Shown here one piece after another: positions 1 to 59,105 of a DNA stretch of 64,000 nucleotides. Origin of the DNA: a virus. Taxonomy: Duplodnaviria; Heunggongvirae; Uroviricota; Caudoviricetes. Position 1 is the first letter of the stretch. Every line of letters starts with the position of its first letter. The DNA is taken from IMG/VR virus record IMGVR_UViG_3300045988_157791. One strand, written 5' to 3'. The translations under genes were made by a program, and so were the position numbers. The notes beneath the pieces are model-generated. The model had not been told where the DNA came from. It was given only the letters and a program-made list of their open reading frames with translations, and did no database searches.

Positions 1-54
1 ACCGCTGACATCCTGCTTACAAGGCAGGCGCTCTACCAACTGAGCTAAACCGGC
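1..54 (-). tRNA. tRNA-Thr (anticodon UGU), 3' part cut by window edge
   Basis: Reverse complement reads GCCGGTT-TA-GCTC-AGTTGGTA-GAGC-G-CCTGC-CTTGTAA-GCAGG...; anticodon loop gives UGU. Differs from the host thr tRNA I recall, so probably phage-encoded. Confidence 0.75.
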
Positions 55-58
55 AATT

Positions 59-145
59 TGGTGGGGAGTGATGGAGTCGAACCACCCGAGTCGCAATGAC
101 AGTAGATTTACAGTCTACCCCGCTGCCCCTACGGACTAACTCCCC
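59..145 (-). tRNA. tRNA-Tyr (anticodon GUA), class II with long variable arm
   Basis: Reverse complement GGGGAGT...GTAGA-CTGTAAA-TCTAC...GGTGG-TTCGACT-CCATC-ACTCCCC-A-CCA; anticodon stem-loop, T-arm and acceptor stem pair correctly. Confidence 0.75.
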
Positions 146-150
146 TAAAT

Positions 151-225
151 TGGCGATGGTGGGTGGATTCGAACCACCGACCAGTTGGTTAACAGCCAAC
201 TGCTCTACCGCTGAGCTACACCATC
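151..225 (-). tRNA. tRNA-Asn (anticodon GUU)
   Basis: Reverse complement GATGGTG-TA-GCTC-AGCGGTA-GAGC-A-GTTGG-CTGTTAA-CCAAC-TGGTC-GGTGG-TTCGAAT-CCACC-CACCATC-G-CCA; complete cloverleaf. Confidence 0.85.
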
Positions 226-7925: not shown

Positions 7926-8032
7926 CTGGTAGGTAGTTACTTACTTATCACGATGAGCGGATGATAGCGACTGGTGGCAGTTTTTGGAAGTGGAAACGGA
8001 AGGGAGTTGTTCTGGTGGTGTCTTTTAAAAGA

Positions 8033-8087
8033 CCTGCTTCCGTATATATTTAATAAGTTACTTATTATTTATATATACAGAAGCAGG
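8033..8087. repeat. 55-bp extended palindrome, copy A
   Basis: CCTGCTTCCGTATATATTTAATAAGTTACTTATTATTTATATATACAGAAGCAGG; outer arms CCTGCTTC/GAAGCAGG around an AATAAGTTACTTATT core. Second copy at 39347-39401. Confidence 0.7.
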
Positions 8088-8198
8088 CATAACTTGTCGT
8101 CTTAGACGCCCAGAAGCTCTACACTTTGAGCCTGTTAAATTGATTAAAAACTTATGTGTAAAATAGAACGCATTAGTCAGTAGCAAAGAGATGCAATA

Positions 8199-8966
8199 AT
8201 GGACGATTTATCGGTATACGCGAGATCATTGGATAAGGCTAAATACTATGTTTACTGTCTCTATGATACAGAAGACAAGATGAAAAGACCGTTTTACATA
8301 GGAAAAGGCAAATCGACTCGTTGTCTCGATCACATCAAGTATCCCGATGACTCTCCCAAATCCATGCGGATCAAAGAACTTTTGGCTAATAAAAAATTAG
8401 GCATAGATATACTTCGTCATGGTATGGATGAAACCACAGCCAAACTTGTTGAGGCGACATGCATCGACCTTATGGGGGTCGGAGAGCTTACGAATAAGGT
8501 ACGAGGAAGTGGTTCCATGATGGGCAGAATATCACTGGACGCCTACCATCACTTAGTGCTGCAAGAGGAAACTGAAATTGCTCCTGAGCACGCCGGTCTT
8601 GCCTTCCTGCTAAACAGCACCTACAAGTCAGGAATGTCCGCTCTGGCATTATATGAAGCTACGCGTGGCGTATGGGCAAAGGTTCCAAGAGACGAGAATC
8701 TCAAATATGCCTACGCTACATATGGTGGGCTGATAATGGAAGTTTATCAGATTGAATGCTGGGTCAAAGCCGGTTCTCAGCAGTACTTTACAAGGGATAT
8801 AGCTCTTGGCCCCGACACAAAACGTTATGAATTTGTTGGCAGAATAGCCGATGAGCATATTAGAAAACTGTATGTAGGCAAATTAATCAAGAAGCCACCA
8901 AGCTACGGTAGCCCTTTTGTGAAGGTTGGGGTGGTTAGGACTGAACATAGTGTTAGCGCGGCATAA
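8199..8966 (+). CDS. GIY-YIG nuclease domain protein, free-standing homing-endonuclease-like
   Basis: N-terminal YYVYCLYD...RPFYIGKGKSTR...H matches the GIY-YIG signature; only plus-strand gene in a minus-strand block. Confidence 0.65.
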   Translation: MDDLSVYARSLDKAKYYVYCLYDTEDKMKRPFYIGKGKSTRCLDHIKYPDDSPKSMRIKELLANKKLGIDILRHGMDETTAKLVEATCIDLMGVGELTNKVRGSGSMMGRISLDAYHHLVLQEETEIAPEHAGLAFLLNSTYKSGMSALALYEATRGVWAKVPRDENLKYAYATYGGLIMEVYQIECWVKAGSQQYFTRDIALGPDTKRYEFVGRIADEHIRKLYVGKLIKKPPSYGSPFVKVGVVRTEHSVSAA

Positions 8967-8983
8967 AGCTGACACTGTAGTTA

Positions 8984-9012
8984 TGCATTGGCGCAATGTA
9001 CGCGCCAATGCA
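8984..9012. terminator. hairpin between convergent genes, likely bidirectional terminator
   Basis: GCATTGGCGC-AATGTA-GCGCCAATGC stem-loop followed by a T-rich tract. Confidence 0.5.
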
Positions 9013-9018
9013 TGATTT

Positions 9019-9378
9019 TTAACCTTTCTTCATCAACTCTCGTTTGATTTCATCGGTACGCATCGTGACATCGGCAGCGGTGATCGCCTCATTCAATTTC
9101 ACGATGTCCTCGATTTCCTGCGGTGACTTCTCTGCCAGATGGAAAATGGCTGCTCGAATCACGTCAGAACGAGTGAACTTCTCGAAGCGAGGGATGAACT
9201 TCATCATCTCCAGCAGTTCGAAGTATTCGTCCTCCAGTGACATTGTGCGGCTTTTAATTTTCTCTTTGCCACGAGTCGGGCGTCCCTGTGGTCTGACTGG
9301 TTGGCGCAAAGGAGTTGTGTTCTTAGCCGGTGCATCAGGCTCTTTGCGCTTTGCTAGGTCACCCATTTTCATGGACAT
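9019..9378 (-). CDS. ParG-like partition/centromere-binding protein (ribbon-helix-helix C-terminus)
   Basis: Directly downstream of the ParA-like gene (start/stop abut at 9378); basic disordered N-terminus plus RHH-like C-terminal segment. Confidence 0.5.
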   Translation of the reverse strand: MSMKMGDLAKRKEPDAPAKNTTPLRQPVRPQGRPTRGKEKIKSRTMSLEDEYFELLEMMKFIPRFEKFTRSDVIRAAIFHLAEKSPQEIEDIVKLNEAITAADVTMRTDEIKRELMKKG

Positions 9379-10046
9379 TATTCTTCTTCCTCCAGACTCA
9401 ACAGATAATCTACAAATTCTTCAAACTCGGCTTCCGCCTTTTTGTCGCGCTCGCTACCGGTCATTTCAAAGATAGAACGACCAGACTCTTCCGCATCATC
9501 ATAGACGTTGCGGTTATATAGATTGACTGGCGCAGACTCGATTCCAAACGTCTCAACAATCTCTTTAGCCGCCAGAATGCGAGACACTTGTGATGGCAAA
9601 GCCGGGCACTGGTTCATGACCGCGCGGACCTTCACTTTATCGTTTACATTGCGAACATTGTCGATAATAGGATCGATGTCACGTAAAGATTTCAAATCAC
9701 GACGCTTAGGACGCAGCGGGATAATGATAACGTCAGCCATCAGCATCGCTTGTCGCTGAATTTCGGAGTCGAAGCCACCAGCATCTACCACTACAAACTC
9801 AGCTCTACCCTGAAGCGATTTTAGGTGCTTAATGATGTCATCCTGAACGTATGCAAAAGGAATCAGCTCAAGGTCTTCGTTCTGTCGACGGTCTTCACAC
9901 CAGCTCGTTGTCGTGCGCTGAATATCTATATCGGTAATATAAACCTTCTTCTTCTTTTTGACTTTCAGGCAAACGGCAATTTGCTGGGCAACGGTGGATT
10001 TGCCAGGCCCGCCCTTTGTGCCGCCAACCACAAAGATCTTGGTCAT
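9378..10046 (-). CDS. ParA-family partition ATPase (small type Ib-like)
   Basis: Deviant Walker A GGTKGGPGKST near the N-terminus and VVVDAGG motif; 222 aa. Confidence 0.7.
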   Translation of the reverse strand: MTKIFVVGGTKGGPGKSTVAQQIAVCLKVKKKKKVYITDIDIQRTTTSWCEDRRQNEDLELIPFAYVQDDIIKHLKSLQGRAEFVVVDAGGFDSEIQRQAMLMADVIIIPLRPKRRDLKSLRDIDPIIDNVRNVNDKVKVRAVMNQCPALPSQVSRILAAKEIVETFGIESAPVNLYNRNVYDDAEESGRSIFEMTGSERDKKAEAEFEEFVDYLLSLEEEE

Positions 10047-10078
10047 TGGAGAGTTCCCTTTGCGTCTATTATTATCGT

Positions 10079-10112
10079 CTGAAACAACTTGTTTTCTTAT
10101 ATGTGATATAGC
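10079..10112. promoter_or_regulatory. palindromic operator GAAACAACTTGTTTTC upstream of the parA-like gene
   Basis: Near-perfect palindrome about 35 bp upstream of the ParA start; same motif recurs upstream of terS and several accessory genes. Confidence 0.5.
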
Positions 10113-10364
10113 CTAAATGCCTACGGCTACGGTGTAAAGGTTAAATGGTAGGTTGTGGTTAACAATTGGCAATCATAGCTTGTATTTGTCTGTTGAAAAA
10201 AGTAACAATGACCTCTATATTACAAGTACGGTGATATGCCGTACACAATTTGATAATGCACACGTAATGGGCTATAGCCTTTTAAAGTAATTTTTGAGTC
10301 GAAAACTCAGTTTGAACAGAGGAGATTGATGGCCTTCCTACATCACGGCCATCAGGAGGAATAC

Positions 10365-10634
10365 ATGTCAGCACTAAAAAAGCAGCGCATCGATTTGAGA
10401 TTAACCGATGACGATAAAAGCATCATCGAGGAAGCTGCCGCAATGTCTAACCAGAGCATTACTCAGTTTATGGTTAGCAGTGCATCTGAACGTGCCGTGA
10501 AAGTTATAGAGCAACACCGTAGACTAGTTCTGAATGAAGAATCCTGGAATCTGGTTATGGACGCTATAAGCAATCCTCCGGCACCGAACGACAAGCTGAA
10601 ACGAGCTGCTGATCGTCTGAAAAGCATGGAGTAG
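10365..10634 (+). CDS. DUF1778-type antitoxin (TacA/AtaR-like)
   Basis: MSALKKQRIDLRLTDDDKSIIEEAA... with AGGAGG ribosome-binding site before the ATG at 10365; 8 bp before the GNAT toxin gene. Confidence 0.75.
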   Translation: MSALKKQRIDLRLTDDDKSIIEEAAAMSNQSITQFMVSSASERAVKVIEQHRRLVLNEESWNLVMDAISNPPAPNDKLKRAADRLKSME

Positions 10635-10641
10635 TTTACTC

Positions 10642-11163
10642 GTGAGCAATACAACGATAGAGATTTTCTCTGGAGAGAAAGATTATGATCTAAACGGTTT
10701 TGATTGCGGCGAAGAGTCACTAAACGCCTTTTTAGCCAACCACTTAAAAAGGCAGCATGAGGGAAAAATTCTTCGTGCTTATGTGCTTTGCACTCAAGAA
10801 GAAAGGCCAAAAGTGTTAGGATATTACACTTTGTCAGGTAGTTGTTTTGAAAAGGAGTCCTTACCTTCAAGAAGCAAACAAAAGAAGGTTCCTTATCGGA
10901 ATGTTCCAAGTGTTACTTTGGGTAGGCTGGCTTTGGACAAGTCCCTTCAAGGTCAAGGATTTGGCTCAATGCTTGTAACACATGCAATGCGCGTTGTGTA
11001 CAATGCATCTCTTGCTGTAGGCATTCATGGACTTTTCGTTGAGGCGTTAAATGACAAAGCCAAGGCGTTTTATAAAAGTTTAGGCTTTATCCAGCTGGTT
11101 GGTAACAACGAGCGTTCTTTGTTCTATCCTACAAAATCTATCGAAAAATTGTTCGAAGAATAA
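10642..11163 (+). CDS. GNAT-family acetyltransferase toxin (TacT/AtaT-like)
   Basis: GNAT motif GQGFGSMLVTHAMR; classical DUF1778 plus GNAT toxin-antitoxin arrangement. Start codon is GTG. Confidence 0.75.
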   Translation: MSNTTIEIFSGEKDYDLNGFDCGEESLNAFLANHLKRQHEGKILRAYVLCTQEERPKVLGYYTLSGSCFEKESLPSRSKQKKVPYRNVPSVTLGRLALDKSLQGQGFGSMLVTHAMRVVYNASLAVGIHGLFVEALNDKAKAFYKSLGFIQLVGNNERSLFYPTKSIEKLFEE

Positions 11164-11331
11164 TGTGTTCCCCTCATTTGAGGGGAACTTCGACATCACC
11201 AACCACAAACCCTCTCTCCCATCGTATTGTGAAAAAGGATTTGGCGTTCGGTTTCTTCAGTCATTACATCATTATTGCTGATATAGATAGGCTCAGCCCC
11301 ATCGCAGAACAACACGCTGGCTGTTTGTGGT

Positions 11332-11583
11332 TTAATGACGCACCCACTTATCATACAACTCACGATGAACGGCAGAAGCATCTTTCTGACGTATTTTACT
11401 GCTCGTCTCATTCACCACTTTCACTGTGTTTTGAAGTCGTTTTCTGTCTTCCTGTTTTGCCTTCTCTTCCATTGCTCGTCGCGCCGCATTCCCGCCCATC
11501 GTGTAAGCGCCGACAAGAACGAAAAGAACGGCAGCCAGCGTAATCAAAGCAACTTTTAGCTTTGTCATCAGGCTGCCTAGCAT
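11332..11583 (-). CDS. small N-terminally anchored protein, possible i-spanin
   Basis: N-terminal helix LKVALITLAAVLFVLVGAY followed by a charged helical region; follows the endolysin candidate. Confidence 0.35.
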   Translation of the reverse strand: MLGSLMTKLKVALITLAAVLFVLVGAYTMGGNAARRAMEEKAKQEDRKRLQNTVKVVNETSSKIRQKDASAVHRELYDKWVRH

Positions 11584-11584
11584 A

Positions 11585-12304
11585 TTAGACCATCCCTTTC
11601 TGGTGTTTTCTTACCTGCGACCAGGCAATGAATCCTGCCACAACAATAGTGGCAATACCGAAGATGATGCGTACTGTATCCCCGCTAGAGATATGACCTT
11701 GTGCTTTATCCATAGCAGCGGAAACCTGCGGCATAACATCGGCCAGCTGCGCCAGACCAATACCTGCTGTAACAGTTGCGCCTGCAGTTTCTTTAGTTAC
11801 AGGAACAGCCTTCACGGTTTTCACCGGCTTAACAACGCCAGCTCGACGCAGACCTTCCTCAATAACTTCTGCCGCATACCAGGTGTTCAGCGTTTTTAGC
11901 GGGCCTCGGCCATTCTCGTGGCGAATGATTGCCTCAACCAAAGGTCGAAGGATGTCGTAATCATGCAGATCGATGATCATGTCTGCGGTTACACCAACGG
12001 CTTTAGACACCTCATTAATGTAGGCGTCAGTATTGTTTTCATTCGGCGGTGCCCAGCGTTCAATAACTTCACGAATGGTATCGATACTTGTGCCGTCTTT
12101 TGCGCGACGTTTATCGTGGTAGGTAATTAGAGTCACCGCCAGCGCACGAATCCCCCAAACAGGGTCTTTAAACGTGCAAAAGCGCGGTTCGTCTGGATTC
12201 GCAACCAGACCTTGCCACGGTGATCCTTTATCAAGATTACCGGGGTTATTATTACGAATGCCTCTCGGAGTCTTCATCCTTGATCTCCTGTTATTGCAGT
12301 CCAC
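11585..12304 (-). CDS. candidate endolysin / cell-wall-active protein with C-terminal membrane anchor
   Basis: RNNNPGNL motif and a C-terminal hydrophobic helix (IIFGIATIVVAGFIAWSQV); placement between two small membrane proteins. Function inferred from context only. Confidence 0.35.
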   Translation of the reverse strand: MDCNNRRSRMKTPRGIRNNNPGNLDKGSPWQGLVANPDEPRFCTFKDPVWGIRALAVTLITYHDKRRAKDGTSIDTIREVIERWAPPNENNTDAYINEVSKAVGVTADMIIDLHDYDILRPLVEAIIRHENGRGPLKTLNTWYAAEVIEEGLRRAGVVKPVKTVKAVPVTKETAGATVTAGIGLAQLADVMPQVSAAMDKAQGHISSGDTVRIIFGIATIVVAGFIAWSQVRKHQKGMV

Positions 12305-12626
12305 TTTTTACGCCATACGCGGCTAACCCCAAAAGCAGTGCGGTAATAATGAACGACGTTATTTTAGAAACAATGCCGCCAAAGAACCCACTTGAGATGG
12401 AATCTAACCGGTTAAGGAGTTTGTCCAGATTGGAGTGTTGAATACTATGTTGCGCCGGGGTCATATCACCAAAGTAGGTTTTCAGCTGATCATTGACCTC
12501 CTGGCCAATTTCTTCACGTAGCTCTTTACCTAATTTGCCAACAACCTCCCGAGCAACGATCGCGGCAATACGCTCAACTTGCTCTGTTGTAACGCCCGCC
12601 ATCTCGTTCGACATGTTTTCCTCCAT
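12291..12626 (-). CDS. small membrane protein, possible holin
   Basis: 111 aa with one C-terminal hydrophobic helix; first gene after the tail fibre; recurrent intergenic motif upstream. Confidence 0.35.
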   Translation of the reverse strand: MEENMSNEMAGVTTEQVERIAAIVAREVVGKLGKELREEIGQEVNDQLKTYFGDMTPAQHSIQHSNLDKLLNRLDSISSGFFGGIVSKITSFIITALLLGLAAYGVKSGLQ

Positions 12627-12816
12627 GAAAAGTCAAATCGGGATGGCGGATTTATATCACACTTCCCCTTTCAATTATAGGTATATACTTACCTATCTAT
12701 GCATATACCGTTTAACGGCTGTTCAAATTCGTATCTAGTAACTCACTAATATATCCCTATGATTGCGGCTGTGAGATCGCATTTTAAACCTCACAGCCAT
12801 ATAAATAATGTCTAAA

Positions 12817-15800
12817 TCAGTTACTTGTTGCCCCAACAGTACCTGCAAATTTCAGCCATTGACCTGACGGACTTCTATTACTACGGTAGTGATAAACGAG
12901 GATTGCGTTTGTAATCCCACCATAGTCAGCTTTGTGTGACGTCGTTAAACGAATTGTATAATCACCGTTAGGTAGATTAAAAACTTCGATTATAGATTCT
13001 GCTAATTCTACAGCACCAAATCCCGTTATATTGTTGATACTGCCAGCATTGAATCCCATAGCATCGCCAAAGCCAATCCAATAACTTTTGCTAAACGCCC
13101 CATTTGATTTTAGGTGGCTAATGAATGCGGACAAGCTCATGCCCATATCCCCACCTGAAACAGAGGAAGTTCGCACAGTCATACTTGGAAGAGCACTGCT
13201 CTTCACATAGGAACTTAGAAGGTTTGTTACCTCTGTTTTCGTGTAAGCATTAAGGTTAGCCGCAGTCAAAGTTATATCGGCAGAGCCATCAAACGCCACA
13301 CCAGCAATTTTCCTTGCTGTCTGCAATTTTGTGGCGGTTGCGGCATTACCAGTAGTGTTCTGATTACCAGTTGTATTCACACCAGGGATTGAATCCTTAG
13401 CGGTATATACCTGCGCCCACGCTGACCATGCCGCATCAGTGGTATCTCTTCGGGAGCGAATGAAAACCGGCGCATGTGCACCGCTCGTACCACTCCAGCC
13501 AATAAGCAACTCGCCCTCACCAGCAGCACTCGCACCTTTCATGTGCAATACGTTGCCATACGTGGTCGGGTAGCTATTGTTGTACGCCTCATACATTTGA
13601 ATGCCAGCAGTGCCTTGAGTAGAGCCGCTTAACGCCGTAACTCGGCCACGAGATACCAATGTATTAATATTGATATCGCCTGAACCATCAAACTTAACAC
13701 CATTGATGTTTCTCGCTGTTTGCAACTTCGTAGCTGTTGAAGCATTACCGTTCAAACTACCATTTACGCCACCAGTCACATTTAGTCCATTACCAATTGA
13801 TACAGCACCGCTGGTATTATTAATTGTAATAGGTCGCAAACCGTTCCATGAACCTAATGTGTCTCCTGATGCTGTTAGCATGAAATATGTGTTCGATCCA
13901 TCATTACGGATAAAGAACCCAAAGCTACCGTAAGCAATGCGGAAACCATTTGCATATTTTGAAATGATCTCGCCAGAAGATGTCAAACCTCCAGATAATG
14001 TACCACCGGTAAGAGGTAATGCACCGACATCAGAGGCTGTTGGTTTGTTTTTCGTGTTATATACTCTTCGCCATCCTGGAGAATAATCTGTGCCATTAAA
14101 TACATAGATAAACTCCGCATTAGTGAGAGCACCGGAAACACTTGTCGTTGTGGCCGTTGTTATGCGGATCGTATAATTATTTGAACTACTACCGTTATTA
14201 AATACTTCTATAACAGCTCCTGCCAATGGAATAACGCCACAACCAGTTTCACTATTTGGTATGGTTGCGCTATTGGCATAGGCCCACGCACATCGAGCAA
14301 TCCATGCCTTTGTGTTAAAGGCTCCATTATTTTGCAATAACGTCACTAACTGGGCTGTTGTTATTGCTCCGCCATTACTTCCTGTAGTTAACCAACCAGT
14401 AGGAGATGCTGGGCAACCTATATTTGCTGGTGACAAGGAAATATTTGCCGAACCGTCAAACGACACCCCATTAATAGTACGCGCAGTCTGCAACTTCGTA
14501 GCAGTAGCCGCATTACCTGTTGTATTCTGATTACCAGTCGTATTAACACCTGGCAAATTAATATTTGCAGTACCATCAAAGCTCACGCCGCCGATAGTTC
14601 TTGCCGTCTGTAGTTTTGTAGCAGTTGCGGCATTACCAGTGGTGTTCTGATTACCCGTAGTGTTTACACCTGGAAGATTAATATTGGCAGAACCGTCGAA
14701 ACCAACTCCACCGATAGTTCTTGCCGTCTGTAATTTCGTTGCTGTAGCAGCATTTCCTGAAAGACTTGAAATAAATGGATGTGAACAGTAATAACCTCGT
14801 CCATTTTTAAAGTCCAAAATTATCTGTGCATTCGTACTTTCTGATAAAGGATCAGTTGCCCCCCACTTATAAGTGGTTTGACCAACTGCATAATCAGCCG
14901 TTGGAACAATCACATTTAATCCTTCCTCAGCAAAAATCTGGATAGGGAATGCTCTTGTCTCAACGTAAAATACACTACACAAATCATCATCTTTTACGCT
15001 TGCGATAATCGAGTGTATAGATCGTTCAACGGTTGAATATATTGAGAAAAAACCAACAGCATATGAACCGCGATCAGACCAACCGCCCGGCATAACAAAA
15101 CCATTAAACTCACAATTATTCATAGCGTATCCGCCAGCTGAGGAATAAGTGGTGATAACCACTCGTGAGGCTAATTCATCTGTGCCACCACCAGTTCGGC
15201 GAAAGACTACAGGATACCACTTACCGCTTACTGCATTTGCAGGAGCAGAGAAAGTGTATTTTCGCATCCCCTTTTTCTTATCCACTTCACCTTTGCTGTA
15301 AACATTAATGTTATTCAGGAAGCGGCCCTTGTCGGGGATATCAGCACCATTCTGATCCTTCTGTAGTCGTTTTTCAGCATTATCATATGCGGTCTTAACT
15401 GCTTTTGGTGTCGCGGCTAAAGATTCACTGGTGCTGTCGACAGCACTGCTAAGTTTCACAACACCTTTGGTGGTAAGGCTTGCGTCTTCCATCGCAACTG
15501 CACCGGCAATCTCTTCAGCACGATCAGCGGCAGCTTCCGCACGGGTCGCAGCGGATTCAGCAGCAGTTTTGCTCTGAGATGCAGCTGTCGCACTGCCTGC
15601 CGCCTCTGTTGCCTTCGTGGATGCCGTTGAAGCACTGCTCTTCGCTGCTGATGCCTGCTTGGTCGCCTCATCTTTTGAAGCGGATGCTGAGGTGGCTGAT
15701 GCAGACGCAGAACTTGCAGATTCAGCAGCTGCCGCCTTAGAGGAAGCAGCATTGTCTTCTGAGGTCTTTGCATTTGTTTCAGAGGTTTTTGCTGCCGATG

Positions 15801-53489: not shown

Positions 53490-54059
53490 TTAGTTGTTCA
53501 GATAAACATTTGGAACACGGACGTAGAAGTTCCTGTCGCCGGTAAGTTCCAGAGTAATGTTAATGTCATTACCATTGTCTAGTGTAGCCGTTGCTCTATA
53601 GAACTTATCCGTCACCTTGTCCTCTATTGTCACCTTCATACATTTTGGTGCAGTCGAACCGTTATTCTCTTTCAGAATAGTTGTCACGAGAGGGCAGGCT
53701 GCTTCTTCAAGAGCAACCTCGTCCTTGTGTGGGATGCCGATGAAGATAACCCAAGCCAGCGACGCAACGATTATGATAAATGGCACTCTGCTGCCTTTTG
53801 TAATAGTCGCGCGCTTCCAGAGATAGACAGGCAGGAGGAATACCCCCCATAGAATTGAAGGTGGTTCACAGCCAGACTCCGATAGAGCCATTCTGTCAGC
53901 TACTAACAAACCGATGGTAGTTACACCCCCAATTATAATAGCGTAATTGGTATACTCTTCCGGCGATACTCCAAAGAAGAAAGGCATGAACGCTAGAATC
54001 CACGCATAAATGTTATTCAGAGGTTTTGTTTGTTGGTTCTGGGTTTCCATCACATCCAT
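53490..54059 (-). CDS. integral membrane protein (189 aa)
   Basis: Several hydrophobic helices (IYAWILAFMPFFFG, IIIGGVTTIGLLV, LWGVFLLPVYLW, FIIIVASLAWVIFIGI) and a hydrophilic C-terminal domain. Confidence 0.5.
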   Translation of the reverse strand: MDVMETQNQQTKPLNNIYAWILAFMPFFFGVSPEEYTNYAIIIGGVTTIGLLVADRMALSESGCEPPSILWGVFLLPVYLWKRATITKGSRVPFIIIVASLAWVIFIGIPHKDEVALEEAACPLVTTILKENNGSTAPKCMKVTIEDKVTDKFYRATATLDNGNDINITLELTGDRNFYVRVPNVYLNN

Positions 54060-54211
54060 TCCATCACATAAAAATCGCGTTTATATATTATCAATTTTCT
54101 CACTTGTATAACCTAAATACGCATCCGTTTATCAATCCACCTTCCACAAACATCAGCTTTAGCTATGAAAAATAACAATCTCAAAGTGAAAACCATTATC
54201 ATAGGAAACGA

Positions 54212-54397
54212 TTAGATGAGATGGTCTAATTCATCATCTATCATTGCTTTAACACTTGAGTCATTAACCCCGTATTGATTTATGAACCGTTTCAGCTCCG
54301 GTGAAAACTGAAGGTAGATATCGTGAGCGTTTTTCACTGTAGGTTCAACGCCACGCATTTCAAGCGCCTTTAGTAGATATGAGTCTTCTTTAAGCAT
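54212..54397 (-). CDS. hypothetical small protein (61 aa)
   Basis: Short ORF downstream of 54434-54742; weak evidence. Confidence 0.3.
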   Translation of the reverse strand: MLKEDSYLLKALEMRGVEPTVKNAHDIYLQFSPELKRFINQYGVNDSSVKAMIDDELDHLI

Positions 54398-54433
54398 AAA
54401 TTCTCCGTTGTCTAGTATGAAGCGATTGCCGGA

Positions 54434-54742
54434 TTACCATTGCCAGCACTCTAGCCCTTCAACGACCGGTGCACCACAATCAAAATGTACAGAGTCAAAG
54501 CCTACATCAAGTACTTTCTGAATGTTCGCAATCGCGCCCTCGGATATACCATATCGACGCAACTCATCTTTCCAGTCATCGTCCTGTAACCCGGCGTGGA
54601 CAATGCAACCGTACTCAATTTGTGAAACCCAATCCAGCTCATTGCTTGCGATCATGAATCGGCGAGCATCTTCCTCTGATGTATGAGATGAGCTGATCAA
54701 TGCCACCTGGTAGGCTTGGGTAATGTTCAACATTTCAACCAC
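54434..54742 (-). CDS. small acidic protein (start probably MLNITQAY near 54730)
   Basis: Two operator palindromes (AAAACAAGTTGTTTT and AGAAAACAAATTGTTTT) at 54737-54802 upstream. Confidence 0.45.
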   Translation of the reverse strand: MVEMLNITQAYQVALISSSHTSEEDARRFMIASNELDWVSQIEYGCIVHAGLQDDDWKDELRRYGISEGAIANIQKVLDVGFDSVHFDCGAPVVEGLECWQW

Positions 54743-54844
54743 TCCAAAACAAGTTGTTTTCTTATGTGGTTTATTATCTCCATCAACAAAAGGCAGAAAA
54801 CAAATTGTTTTAGGTACTGTGTAAATCAGAAGGGATTGTGTCTA

Positions 54845-54875
54845 TATGAAAATGCCCGGCGTGTTGCCGGGCATT
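54845..54875 (-). terminator. metG intrinsic terminator
   Basis: GCCCGGCGTGTTGCCGGGC hairpin just after the metG stop, followed by a T-rich tract on the minus strand. Confidence 0.65.
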
Positions 54876-54894
54876 GCGAAGAGAGGTTGTTTAA

Positions 54895-56928
54895 TTACTT
54901 AACCTGGTGGCCAGGTTTAGCACCAGCATCCGGGCTTAACAGGAAGATATCTTTCCCGCCGGGGCCAGCAGCCATCACCATGCCTTCAGAGATACCGAAG
55001 CGCATTTTACGTGGTGCCAGGTTAGCCACCATAATGGTGTGACGACCAATCAGTGCCTGCGGATCCGGGTAGGCAGAACGAATACCGGAGAAGACATTGC
55101 GTTTTTCACCGCCGAGATCCAGTGTCAGGCGCAGCAGTTTGTCAGAACCTTCAACAAACTCTGCGTTTTCGATCAGCGCTACGCGCAGGTCAACTTTGGC
55201 GAAGTCGTCAAAGGTGATGGTTTCCTGAATCGGATCATCTGCCAGTGGGCCAGTAACTGGCGCGGCAGCTGCTTTCACTTCTTCTTTAGACGCTTCCACC
55301 AGTGCTTCAACCTGCTTCATATCGATGCGGTTATACAGTGCCTTGAACGGATTTACTTTATGGCCCAGCAGCGGTTGCTGGATACCATCCCAGGTCAGTT
55401 CTGTATTCAGGAATGCTTCTGCACGTTCAGTCAGTTTCGGCAGTACCGGCTTCAGGTACGTCATCAGCACGCGGAACAGGTTAATGCCCATAGAGCAAAT
55501 CGCCTGCAGATCGGCATCGCGTCCTTCCTGCTTCGCCACCACCCACGGAGCCTGTTCATCGACATAGCGGTTAGCCAGGTCAGCCAGTGCCATGATTTCA
55601 CGGATAGCTTTACCAAATTCGCGGCTTTCCCACGCTTCACCAATCACTTCAGCGGCATCAGTGAAGGTTTTGTACAACTGCGGGTCAGCCAGCTCGCTTG
55701 CCAGCACACCGTCAAAACGCTTATTGATAAAGCCAGCGTTACGGGACGCCAGGTTAACCACTTTGTTCACGATATCGGCATTCACACGCTGAACGAAATC
55801 CTCCAGGTTGAGATCGATATCATCAATGCGCGAAGAGAGTTTCGCAGTGTAGTAGTAACGCAGGCTGTCAGCGTCAAAATGATTCAGCCAGGTGCTGGCT
55901 TTAATAAAGGTGCCGCGAGACTTGGACATCTTCGCGCCGTTCACCGTCACATAGCCATGAACAAACAGGTTGGTCGGCTTGCGGAAGTTGCTGCCTTCCA
56001 GCATGGCAGGCCAGAACAGGCTGTGGAAGTAAACGATATCTTTACCGATGAAGTGGTACAGCTCGGCGGTGGAGTCTTTCTTCCAGTATTCATCGAAGCT
56101 TACGCTGTCGCCGCGCTTGTCGCACAGATTCTTGAAAGAACCCATGTAGCCAATCGGTGCGTCCAGCCAGACGTAGAAATATTTGCCCGGCGCGTTCGGA
56201 ATTTCAAAACCGAAGTAAGGGGCGTCGCGGGAGATATCCCACTGTTGCAGGCCAGATTCAAACCACTCCTGCATTTTATTTGCCACCTGCTCCTGCAACG
56301 CACCGCTGCGGGTCCATGCCTGCAACATTTCGCTGAAAGAGGGCAGATCAAAGAAGAAGTGTTCAGAATCACGCATTACCGGCGTAGCACCAGAAACCAC
56401 CGATTTCGGTTCAATCAGTTCAGTCGGGCTGTAGGTCGCGCCGCAGACTTCACAGTTATCGCCGTATTGATCTGGCGCTTTACATTTCGGGCAGGTGCCT
56501 TTCACAAAACGGTCCGGCAGGAACATGCCTTTTTCCGGATCGTACAGCTGAGAGATGGTGCGGTTTTTAATAAAACCGTTTTCTTTCAGGCGAGAGTAGA
56601 TAAGTTCTGACAACTGGCGGTTCTCTTCGCTGTGCGTCGAGTGATAGTTGTCATAGCTGATGTTAAAGCCTGCGAAATCAGTCTGATGTTCCTGACTCAT
56701 TTCGCCAATCATCTGCTCCGGTGTGATACCAAGCTGCTGAGCTTTAAGCATGATCGGCGTGCCGTGGGCATCGTCGGCGCAGATGAAGTTGACCTCGTGG
56801 CCGCGCATTCGCTGGTAACGGACCCAGACATCAGCCTGGATGTGCTCCAGCATATGGCCGAGGTGGATTGAGCCGTTAGCGTACGGCAGCGCGCACGTCA
56901 CCAGAATTTTCTTCGCGACTTGGGTCAT
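54895..56928 (-). CDS. metG: methionyl-tRNA synthetase
   Basis: 677-aa protein from [31 protein letters not shown] with class I HIGH-type (HLGH) and KMSKS motifs and C-terminal tRNA-binding domain. The track ORF extends upstream to a non-ATG start. Confidence 0.95.
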
Positions 56929-57085
56929 AGTAGGCATTACTTCTTTGTAGTGAAAAGGGGCTTGATAGTAACAAAATGGCCTTATGTCTGCCATGTGATA
57001 ACAGCATTTCTCATAAATGATTAAATGTCGTAGCTGGAGTACACTACAAGGCGACAATTGCGCAAATTAAAATAAAGGAGACGGG

Positions 57086-58186
57086 ATGAGCGAGTCCAAA
57101 TCGCCGGATGCCCTGAGAGCAATGGTAGCCGGTACGCTGGCTAATTTTCAGCACCCAACCCTGAAACACAACCTGACTACGCTTAAAGCGTTACACCATG
57201 TTGCGTTGATGGATGACACACTGCATGTCGAACTAATCATGCCTTTCGTGTGGAATAAGCCTTTTGAAGACCTGAAAGAGCAATGTAGTGGTGATCTGCT
57301 CCGTATCACTGGCGCAAAGGCTATTGACTGGAAGCTGTCGTACAACATTGCCACGCTTAAGCGCGTCAAAAACCAACCAGGCATTAATGGCGTTAAGAAC
57401 ATTATCGCCGTCAGCTCAGGCAAGGGCGGCGTAGGTAAATCCTCCACGGCGGTAAATCTGGCACTGGCGTTGGCTGCTGAAGGTGCGAAAGTTGGTATTT
57501 TGGATGCCGATATCTATGGTCCATCAATTCCAACCATGCTGGGCGCGGAAAACCAACGTCCAACCTCACCGGACGGTACTCACATGGCACCTATCATGTC
57601 TCATGGCCTGGCAACCAACTCTATTGGTTATCTGGTCACCGACGACAATGCAATGGTGTGGCGTGGACCGATGGCCAGCAAGGCGCTGATGCAGATGTTG
57701 CAGGAAACTCTATGGCCTGATCTGGACTATCTCGTTCTCGATATGCCGCCGGGCACTGGTGATATTCAGTTGACGCTGGCGCAGAACATTCCTGTAACTG
57801 GTGCGGTTGTGGTAACTACGCCGCAAGACATCGCGCTGATCGATGCGAAGAAAGGCATTGTGATGTTCGAAAAAGTCGAAGTGCCGGTACTGGGTATCGT
57901 CGAAAACATGAGTGTGCATATTTGCAGTAACTGCGGTCATCACGAGCCAATTTTTGGCACCGGTGGCGCACAGAAACTGGCCGAGAAATACAACACGCAG
58001 TTGTTAGGCCAAATGCCACTTCATATCTCTCTTCGTGAAGATCTGGATAACGGAACACCAACCGTTATTAGTCGTCCAGATAGCGAATTTACGGCTATTT
58101 ATCGTGACCTCGCAGATCGCGTTGCTGCCCAAATGTATTGGCAAGGTGAAGTAATACCTGGCGAAATCGCATTCCGCGCAGTGTGA
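57086..58186 (+). CDS. apbC: Mrp/ApbC Fe-S cluster carrier ATPase
   Basis: Deviant Walker A SSGKGGVGKSST, CSNCGHH Cys motif, divergent from metG with about 157-bp spacer, the usual enterobacterial arrangement. Confidence 0.9.
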   Translation: MSESKSPDALRAMVAGTLANFQHPTLKHNLTTLKALHHVALMDDTLHVELIMPFVWNKPFEDLKEQCSGDLLRITGAKAIDWKLSYNIATLKRVKNQPGINGVKNIIAVSSGKGGVGKSSTAVNLALALAAEGAKVGILDADIYGPSIPTMLGAENQRPTSPDGTHMAPIMSHGLATNSIGYLVTDDNAMVWRGPMASKALMQMLQETLWPDLDYLVLDMPPGTGDIQLTLAQNIPVTGAVVVTTPQDIALIDAKKGIVMFEKVEVPVLGIVENMSVHICSNCGHHEPIFGTGGAQKLAEKYNTQLLGQMPLHISLREDLDNGTPTVISRPDSEFTAIYRDLADRVAAQMYWQGEVIPGEIAFRAV

Positions 58187-58212
58187 TAAAAAGGCGGTGC
58201 AATGCACCGCCT
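58187..58212. terminator. hairpin terminator between convergent apbC and the UmuD-like gene
   Basis: GGCGGTGCAATGCACCGCC stem-loop flanked by A-run on one side, so a T-run for the minus strand. Confidence 0.55.
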
Positions 58213-58223
58213 AATCAGTTCTC

Positions 58224-58613
58224 CTACATCACGGGACAATCATCAAACTCGCCACTTCTTGCGTCGTTGATAATGTGAGTGATCACACCAAACACGGCAT
58301 TGCTGCCCGTGCATCCATCGTCATCCTTTGGCAATGCTTCCTTCTTACCGGTTCTTAAATCCTCCAGATGCTGACGTGGGTACTTCCGGTATCTTTTTAC
58401 GCGATATTCCCCATCCAGAGCGCATACAAGCAGAGAACCATCAACTGGGGTAAGTGAGGAATCAACCACCAGCAATGCACCCTGTAATATTCCCTCACGA
58501 TGATGACTATCAGCTGCCCGCATGAAGTAGGTCGCTGAAGGATGTCTGATTAGTTGCTGATCAAGAGAAATACGGCTCTCTGCATAATCCGCCGCAGGAG
58601 AAGGGAAGCCCAT
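58224..58613 (-). CDS. UmuD'-like S24 peptidase-fold protein (129 aa), lacks the N-terminal cleavage region
   Basis: MGFPSPAADYAESRISLDQQLIRHPSATYF... parallels UmuD from the post-cleavage Gly onward; Ser (ADSH) and Lys (RVKR) positions retained. No umuC-like gene adjacent. Confidence 0.6.
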   Translation of the reverse strand: MGFPSPAADYAESRISLDQQLIRHPSATYFMRAADSHHREGILQGALLVVDSSLTPVDGSLLVCALDGEYRVKRYRKYPRQHLEDLRTGKKEALPKDDDGCTGSNAVFGVITHIINDARSGEFDDCPVM

Positions 58614-58712
58614 AGCGTTTTACCTCAATGATACTGTTTATTCATACAGTATACATTGAAAAGGCATAGTTTGTGAAAGCGGGGTTTGCAGGCGCGCCAC
58701 GCTGGGGGCTAA

Positions 58713-59105
58713 TCACATTGGTGGCGTGAACTTGCCATTCATATATTGCAAAATGCTTGACTCAATTTTTTCATTAAAATCAGAATGATGCTCCTCAAGG
58801 ACAAAGCGCGCCTTATTGTTGCGCACAATAACCTCCGCCAACGGACTAACCAGAGATGTGGAGTTAGAGATTTTCTCGGCGCGCTCTACATCGCTTTTAA
58901 ACGTTACGATGAAGTGCTGGTGGCCTGGTGACCGGCGACACAACATGCGTCGCACTTCCACGGTATCTTCACGGCCTTGAGTATGTACAGGAAAGCTATC
59001 GACCACCGCTGTATTGGTGCGGATTGTCTGCATAGAACGCGTGTTGTCGTGATAGTTAAGCATGTTTAATGTCTTCCCCATCTTGCCGTTATTTTCTTGG
59101 TGCAT
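58713..59105 (-). CDS. hypothetical protein (130 aa)
   Basis: ORF in leftward operon; no recognisable motif. Confidence 0.4.

Follow-up and report, generated by a model that had tools for sequence, protein, structure and literature searches.

We describe a toxin-antitoxin gene pair carried by a 64,000-nucleotide stretch of DNA from a Caudoviricetes virus (IMG/VR record IMGVR_UViG_3300045988_157791); this whole stretch is referred to as the window. Comparison of the encoded proteins with known systems places the pair among the GNAT/DUF1778 type II toxin-antitoxins, in the AtaRT/KacAT branch (clade A). The pair probably constitutes a functional operon of this type, forming a self-contained 1-kb cassette in a slot of a phage-plasmid, with addiction of the plasmid prophage as its likely role. 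It is a common and already annotated member of a well-studied toxin-antitoxin family in a location of an expected kind, and it represents a distinct sub-branch of that family. The features discussed are collected in Table 1.

Table 1. Coordinates of the cassette, its elements, its neighbours and the tRNA and metG genes, as positions in the window.
Feature	Position	Strand	Remarks
Whole cargo cassette, 1,045 bp	10154-11198	+	promoter, operator, leader, antitoxin, toxin and 3' hairpin; delimited by homology breakpoints
Sigma-70-like promoter	10193-10221	+	TTGAAA, 17-nt spacer, TATATT; 10/12 consensus matches, best in the region
Candidate operator palindrome	10226-10244		GTACGG-N7-CCGTAC, perfect 6-nt arms; 5 nt past the -10 box
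5' leader, ~120 nt	10245-10364	+	two small hairpins (10295-10309; 10327-10354), conserved among E. coli alleles only
Antitoxin, 89 aa, DUF1778/TacA family	10365-10634	+	ATG start; N-terminal ribbon-helix-helix and C-terminal toxin-binding region
GNAT toxin, 173 aa	10642-11163	+	GTG start; predicted aminoacyl-tRNA N-acetyltransferase
GC-rich terminator-like hairpin	11167-11188		9-bp stem; between the convergent 3' ends of toxin and Rz1, inside the cassette borders
119-aa parA partner	9019-9378	-	presumed centromere-binding protein; PHROG 5111, function unknown
parA partition ATPase	9378-10046	-	divergent neighbour; NCBIfam ParA_partition 1.9e-33, PHROG 164 ParA-like
Lysis cassette (Rz1, Rz, endolysin, holin)	11196-12626	-	convergent neighbour; PHROG Rz-like spanin and endolysin matches, Cyrano annotation agrees
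tRNA array	1-225	-	Tyr(GTA) 59-145, Asn(GTT) 151-225, and a further tRNA cut by the window edge
metG, full-length	54895-56928	-	within the element beside apbC, 43.7 kb away from the toxin
apbC	57086-58186	+	inside the element, beside metG

The gene pair and its place among the GNAT toxins

An earlier note on this DNA had read the plus-strand interval 10365-11163 as a DUF1778 antitoxin followed by a GNAT toxin, and the two open reading frames are indeed found there. The antitoxin matches Pfam TacA1/DUF1778 (PF08681) at 5.7e-26 and, among solved structures, KacA at 6.6e-42 and AtaR at 1.3e-40. The toxin matches Pfam Acetyltransf_1 and Acetyltransf_7 at ~1e-7 and, among solved structures, AtaT (1.4e-79) and KacT (3.9e-75); other GNAT toxins come next, at 1e-21 to 5e-4. 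These domain and structure matches are far beyond chance resemblance. The NCBIfam search of the toxin returned no specific AtaT or TacT model and only weak generic GNAT and RimI matches below the cut-off. The antitoxin gene comes first on the same strand, and each gene is preceded by a Shine-Dalgarno sequence (AGGAGG at 10354-10359 for the antitoxin, GGAG at 10628-10631 for the toxin). The genes had been described as 8 bp apart; the close spacing stands, the actual gap from the antitoxin stop to the toxin start being 7 nt and 8 being the difference between the coordinates.

Among the TacT, AtaT and ItaT families, against which the note had proposed to place the toxin, the matches to solved structures point to the AtaT/KacT branch, the toxin being closer to these two proteins than to TacT, ItaT or other GNAT toxin branches. 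In Bikmetov et al. 2022 (PMC9177977) this branch is clade A, to which the toxin belongs. At 69.4% identity to AtaT and 69.8% to KacT, it stands about as far from either protein as the two stand from each other (69.8%); since all three are mutually ~70% identical, the present toxin represents a third, equidistant branch of the same clade.

The alignment of the toxin with AtaT contains no indels, and the residues can consequently be compared position by position with those whose roles in tRNA contact and catalysis are described from the AtaT-tRNA structure and from mutants, including G108D and Y144F (PMC7595197). Catalytic residues of the GNAT type, on which the note had made its reading depend, are not lost: the catalytic Y144 is present, as is the acetyl-CoA residue G108. 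The acetyl-CoA loop Q-x-x-G-x-G is kept as LQGQGFG at toxin residues 102-108, including Q105, G106 and G108, and so are, in AtaT numbering, F30, H34, R37, S76, S78, K79, K81, K82, P84, Y85, R95 and K165. Over 21 key positions, 17 are identical to AtaT, two differ conservatively (R71K, K77R) and two are KacT-like. The latter, R40E and N41G, are the sole non-conservative changes; KacT has D/G at these positions and the same target range as AtaT. In the antitoxin, R8, D10 and R12 are conserved in the alignment, and the corresponding residues of KacA read the operator (PMC6698736).

The closest named systems are AtaR-AtaT of E. coli O157:H7, located chromosomally between livJ and panM (PDB 6GTS, 6AJM), and KacA-KacT of Klebsiella pneumoniae (PDB 5ZGN, 5XUN). 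The present pair and AtaRT are both antitoxin-first with a gap of 6-7 nt, and they align over their full length without indels at 69% identity for the toxin and 76% for the antitoxin; they share Y144, G108 and most tRNA-contact residues, and the operator half-sites and antitoxin residues R8/D10/R12 are identical. They differ in that the present pair lies on a phage-plasmid cassette whereas ataRT is chromosomal, in the GTG start of the present toxin, in E40/G41 as opposed to R40/N41 of AtaT, and in the length of the leader, which is ~120 nt here and ~25 nt in ataRT. The NCBI pipeline likewise separates them, naming the chromosomal genes AtaT and AtaR and the present ones 'GNAT family' (in RefSeq, 'GNAT family N-acetyltransferase') and 'DUF1778/TacA family'. 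The pair was also considered as the orthologue of the O157 chromosomal AtaT/AtaR, a possibility rejected on 66% DNA identity, 69% protein identity and the plasmid context.

The comparison with KacAT gives 70% identity for the toxin (residues 15-173) and ~80% for the antitoxin. An acidic residue followed by Gly at positions 40/41 and a palindromic operator at the transcription start are common to both, and, by analogy, conditional cooperativity as in KacAT can be expected; the two nevertheless lie on separate branches, AtaT, KacT and the present toxin each standing at ~70% identity to the others. The pair in pLF82/phage Cyrano is 100% identical to ours and is annotated there as 'KacT acetyltransferase-type toxin' and 'putative antitoxin'; in this record 'KacT' is a family-level label and not an orthology call. 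The Cyrano record also gives the antitoxin 101 aa by starting at an in-frame ATG at 10329. This longer form was rejected: the ATG at 10329 is out of frame in a 91% allele as a result of a 1-nt insertion, and the alignments with both AtaR and KacA begin at residue 1 of the 89-aa product, so that 10365 is the real antitoxin start. An effect of a GUG start codon has been described for KacT4 (PMC9431474), and by analogy the present toxin may be held at a low level by its native GTG start.

Neither gene is disrupted, and both are under purifying selection. Internal stops are absent from 8/8 alleles, and comparison of E. coli phage-plasmid alleles gives a dN/dS of 0.05 in the antitoxin gene and of 0.06-0.15 in the toxin gene. 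When 10365-11163 is compared with a 96% allele (L010:1266-2064), the antitoxin shows 0/270 differences and the toxin 26/522, which indicates recombination with a breakpoint at the junction of the two genes or close to it. The Cyrano/pLF82 pair has been reported as a moron, transcribed in the lysogen at 35x (toxin) and 60x (antitoxin) the local background, on a plasmid present at ~5.5 copies per cell (PMC9928086).

Regulatory elements, cassette borders and the phage-plasmid slot

The putative promoter varies little among five phage-plasmid alleles, where the first five bases of the first hexamer (TTGAA) never change and the second hexamer differs at a single position; the -10 region is largely kept also in ataRT of the O157 chromosome, on a K. 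variicola virulence plasmid and on E. coli p98201. The palindrome downstream of it is unchanged in 8/8 diverged loci, namely O157 ataRT, K. variicola pVir, E. coli p98201 and the phage-plasmid alleles of E. coli, Citrobacter and Cronobacter. The KacA4KacT2 and AtaR4AtaT2 heterohexamers are reported to bind a palindrome that spans the transcription start (PMC6698736), and the placement of the candidate operator fits this published mode of binding. A structured leader RNA was considered as well and rejected: the fold of a 152-nt leader is no more stable than that of shuffled sequence (z = -0.25), and the hairpins are kept only among E. coli alleles. An Rfam search of 9900-11500 gave sub-threshold chance matches only.

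The borders of the cassette are defined by homology to relatives that lack the pair. Against PhiR41_1 and SSU5, homology breaks off at 10153 and is found again from 11199-11204, so that promoter, operator and 3' hairpin all arrive with the cassette. The left breakpoint is the same (10152/10153) in Citrobacter and Cronobacter phage-plasmids, where homology on the right resumes at 11205-11214. The place between the partition genes and the lysis cassette is a variable cargo slot. In SSU5 and PhiR41_1 (L007:2714-3889, L008:2678-3834) it holds two unrelated minus-strand genes of 233-258 aa and 132-140 aa, which have no Pfam or PADLOC match and correspond to PHROGs 3307 and 2594, both of unknown function; possibly the two genes form a further module for maintenance or defence. 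A related toxin-antitoxin pair occupies the same slot in the Citrobacter and Cronobacter phage-plasmids, with an antitoxin 83-88% identical and a toxin only ~62% identical to the present ones. A related pair also occurs on E. coli p98201, where it adjoins the RepB replication gene and vapBC.

The pair is very common. Among complete E. coli genomes, 264 have this par locus on a plasmid, ~152 have the pair at >=90% identity (~58%) and 41 plasmids carry the alternative cargo of the SSU5/PhiR41_1 type, the three counts being results of separate searches that are not joined genome by genome. The par locus serves as the denominator here in place of a 5.5-kb metG-region query, which also matched unrelated plasmids and had given an early carriage figure of ~23%, now discarded. 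Within the collection, 8,192 indexed blocks contain the exact toxin, each exact protein occurs on at least 1,000 contigs, and among the matches listed the exact toxin was found in phage-plasmid context only, in 8/8 distinct places. The exact toxin with the usual phage-plasmid neighbours is also present on contigs far longer than ~110 kb, namely L019 (CASDMQ010000024.1, 2.72 Mb) and L014, L016-L018 and L020 (228-374 kb), which suggests cointegrates, chromosomal integration or assembly joins.

The source element is an SSU5-like E. coli phage-plasmid of the IncFIB type, non-mobilizable and ~110 kb in size, as follows from sequence identity and gene order. The ~5 kb around the pair match E. coli plasmid pM-64-197 (NZ_MT773672.1) at 100% identity, the phage records CMS-2020a and Cyrano at 98-99% and Salmonella phage SSU5 at ~84%, and the genes follow the order DnaB-like helicase, variable gene, small protein, parA, the pair, Rz1/Rz, endolysin, holin and tail fibres. 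Identity to pM-64-197 is 100% in the region of the pair (8000-13000) but only 98.3% in the metG region (53500-59000), which makes the source element a mosaic relative of pM-64-197 and not pM-64-197 itself.

The earlier note had described the pair as oriented opposite to all its neighbours and adjacent to a ParA gene. The first statement is accurate for the immediate neighbours, both sides being on the minus strand, and fails further to the left, where an open reading frame at 8199-8966 is on the plus strand; the second is borne out by the PHROG match and by the ParA_partition match, which at 115.7 bits stays under the model's curated cut-off of 180 bits. The 119-aa partner of parA is translationally coupled to it, its start overlapping the parA stop. 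This protein has no Pfam match and no sequence match in the PDB, and its single-sequence AlphaFold model (mean pLDDT 67), in which helices at 48-59, 70-82 and 86-118 are predicted behind a disordered basic tail, gave no Foldseek match at E <1. The 'ParG-like' label that the note had given it found no support in these searches. The Cyrano record calls the same protein a 'RelE/ParE putative toxin', a label that finds no support here, given the coupling to the parA stop and the lack of a Pfam hit.

On the other side of the par genes, the plus-strand open reading frame at 8199-8966 occupies a second variable slot and encodes a 255-aa GIY-YIG protein that matches the anti-phage defence gene PD-T4-3 (PADLOC 1.3e-23; Pfam LEM-3_GIY-YIG). 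Other copies of the element have a 352/357-aa protein or a DUF2971 protein in this second slot. PD-T4-3 is already among the defence systems listed for SSU5-group phage-plasmids in a 2025 preprint.

The proposed addiction role and its alternatives

The mechanism we propose is modelled on homologues that have been solved or tested. The antitoxin would dimerise through its ribbon-helix-helix domain, the A4T2 complex would bind the palindromic operator and repress the operon, and the C-terminal part of the antitoxin would cover the active site of the toxin. [quoted passage not shown] The outcome for the element would be post-segregational stabilisation, that is, addiction of the plasmid prophage. 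That toxins of this family acetylate aminoacyl-tRNAs, as the earlier note had stated, is established for the homologues AtaT and KacT: AtaT acetylates Met-tRNAfMet in vitro as well as Gly-, Trp-, Tyr- and Phe-tRNAs (PMC7595197), and in vivo both AtaT and KacT lead to acetylation of Gly and hydrophobic aminoacyl-tRNAs (PMC9177977). Levels of fMet-tRNA are unchanged and overexpression of Pth rescues growth, which places the block at elongation; the target-range data for clade A cover AtaT, KacT and AcaT (PMC9177977). For the present pair, we infer toxicity, neutralisation, targets and stabilising effect alike.

Plasmid stabilisation is the likeliest role because the pair lies beside parA on a low-copy plasmid prophage, because its relative on p98201 is next to a replication gene and because GmvAT offers a precedent. 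The pair is divergent from parA, near maintenance genes of a low-copy, non-mobilizable IncFIB phage-plasmid. Two other toxin-antitoxin modules likewise reside on a low-copy plasmid or plasmid prophage, phd-doc of the phage-plasmid P1 and GmvAT of Shigella pINV, and the stabilisation that we would expect here is proven there. The phd-doc module, whose toxin is of an unrelated family, stabilises P1. GmvAT is a GNAT/DUF1778 pair that promotes plasmid inheritance (PMC6519299); GmvT is thus a GNAT toxin with a DUF1778 antitoxin like the present one, but it belongs to the Gly-specific clade D (PMC9177977). Some considerations speak against this reading. With ~5.5 copies and a par system of its own, the plasmid may gain little from addiction, and a substantial share of related phage-plasmids do without the pair, SSU5 and PhiR41_1 carrying other genes in its place. 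The departure from AtaT at positions 40/41 and the GTG start of the toxin also count on this side, the former being offset by the similar residues of KacT.

Alternatively, the pair could act mainly as a moron in anti-phage defence (abortive infection) or in competition between elements, such that infection by another phage frees the toxin, translation stops and the lysogen population is protected. The slot and the adjacent slot are both cargo hot spots, the latter with varying occupants and in this element with the PD-T4-3-like gene, lysogens express the pair as they do other morons, and some translation-targeting toxin-antitoxin pairs are known defence systems. We nevertheless consider this role unlikely: neither protein matches a PADLOC model (PADLOC-DB 2.0, E up to 0.01), a defence role was not found reported in the GNAT/DUF1778 literature examined, and the siting beside par, or beside rep on other plasmids, better fits maintenance. 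Less probable still is that the pair is a selfish or neutral passenger of no measurable benefit, which persists through its own addictive property or through recombination. The sharp cassette borders, the replacement of the cassette by other cargo in relatives and the mosaic relationship with the L010 allele (0/270 as opposed to 26/522 differences), which indicates recombination, agree with such a passenger, but both genes are under strong purifying selection, phage-plasmids of E. coli, Citrobacter and Cronobacter all have a pair of this family in the slot, and in E. coli the pair sits in the slot of ~58% of the elements. Addiction of the plasmid prophage remains our preferred reading.

The earlier note had also speculated that the toxin is linked to Met-tRNA and to the metG and tRNA genes of the element, for instance in that metG or a phage tRNA buffers the toxin. 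The element does carry tRNAs (Tyr, Asn and one cut by the edge), but no Met tRNA was found within the window; and metG, which the element was said to abut, lies inside it. What can be said for the link is that Met-tRNAfMet in vitro and Tyr-tRNA in vivo are substrates of AtaT (PMC7595197) and that the element has both metG and tRNA-Tyr, the acceptor stem of the phage tRNA-Tyr (G1G2G3G4A5G6U7) interrupting the G4-G6 run of G-C pairs preferred by AtaT. However, metG is 43.7 kb away, and metG-apbC is present in PhiR41_1, where the pair is absent; Cyrano, in turn, has the identical pair and a Ser/Thr/Asn set of tRNAs without tRNA-Tyr. Taken together, PhiR41_1 and Cyrano show no genomic coupling of the pair to metG or the tRNAs, and in view of the Cyrano result the interruption of the acceptor stem is best treated as coincidence. 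In addition, clade A toxicity in vivo is exerted at elongation, mainly through Gly and hydrophobic aminoacyl-tRNAs, and Pth relieves it (PMC9177977). A functional tie between the toxin and these genes is consequently the least credible of the readings considered, with hardly any probability left to it, and the suggested connection with Met-tRNA, metG and the tRNAs of the phage can be dropped.

Several observations concern these genes in their own right. The tRNA array differs between near-identical elements, as in the case of Cyrano without tRNA-Tyr, and similar Tyr/Asn/Thr arrays are found in unrelated virulent coliphages. The metG gene is on 220 E. coli plasmid records, and the copy in the element is 96-97% identical to chromosomal metG; metG-apbC represents ~3.3 kb of homology to the host chromosome, through which gene conversion or cointegration could take place.

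A further question is raised by chromosomal ataRT, which is carried by ~30% of E. coli. Both systems have identical operator half-sites and identical antitoxin residues for DNA contact, and their antitoxins share 76% identity; AtaR could for this reason repress or neutralise the plasmid module. We rate actual cross-talk between the two systems as improbable. If it did occur, chromosomal AtaR would act as an anti-addiction factor and the element would be lost more easily from ataRT hosts; the reverse is also possible. In the fixed slot, the toxin has diverged more than the antitoxin between E. coli and Citrobacter/Cronobacter (62% as opposed to 83-88% identity), which could represent diversification to escape cross-neutralisation.

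The significance of the pair beyond its annotation is small. The analysis places a very common pair of a clinically widespread E. coli phage-plasmid family in the AtaT/KacT clade, defines the borders and regulatory elements of its cassette and corrects two public annotations, namely the start of the antitoxin, given as a 101-aa protein, and the label 'KacT', which applies at family level. Should addiction be confirmed as its role, this would account in part for how stably SSU5-like phage-plasmids, pLF82/Cyrano among them, are carried.
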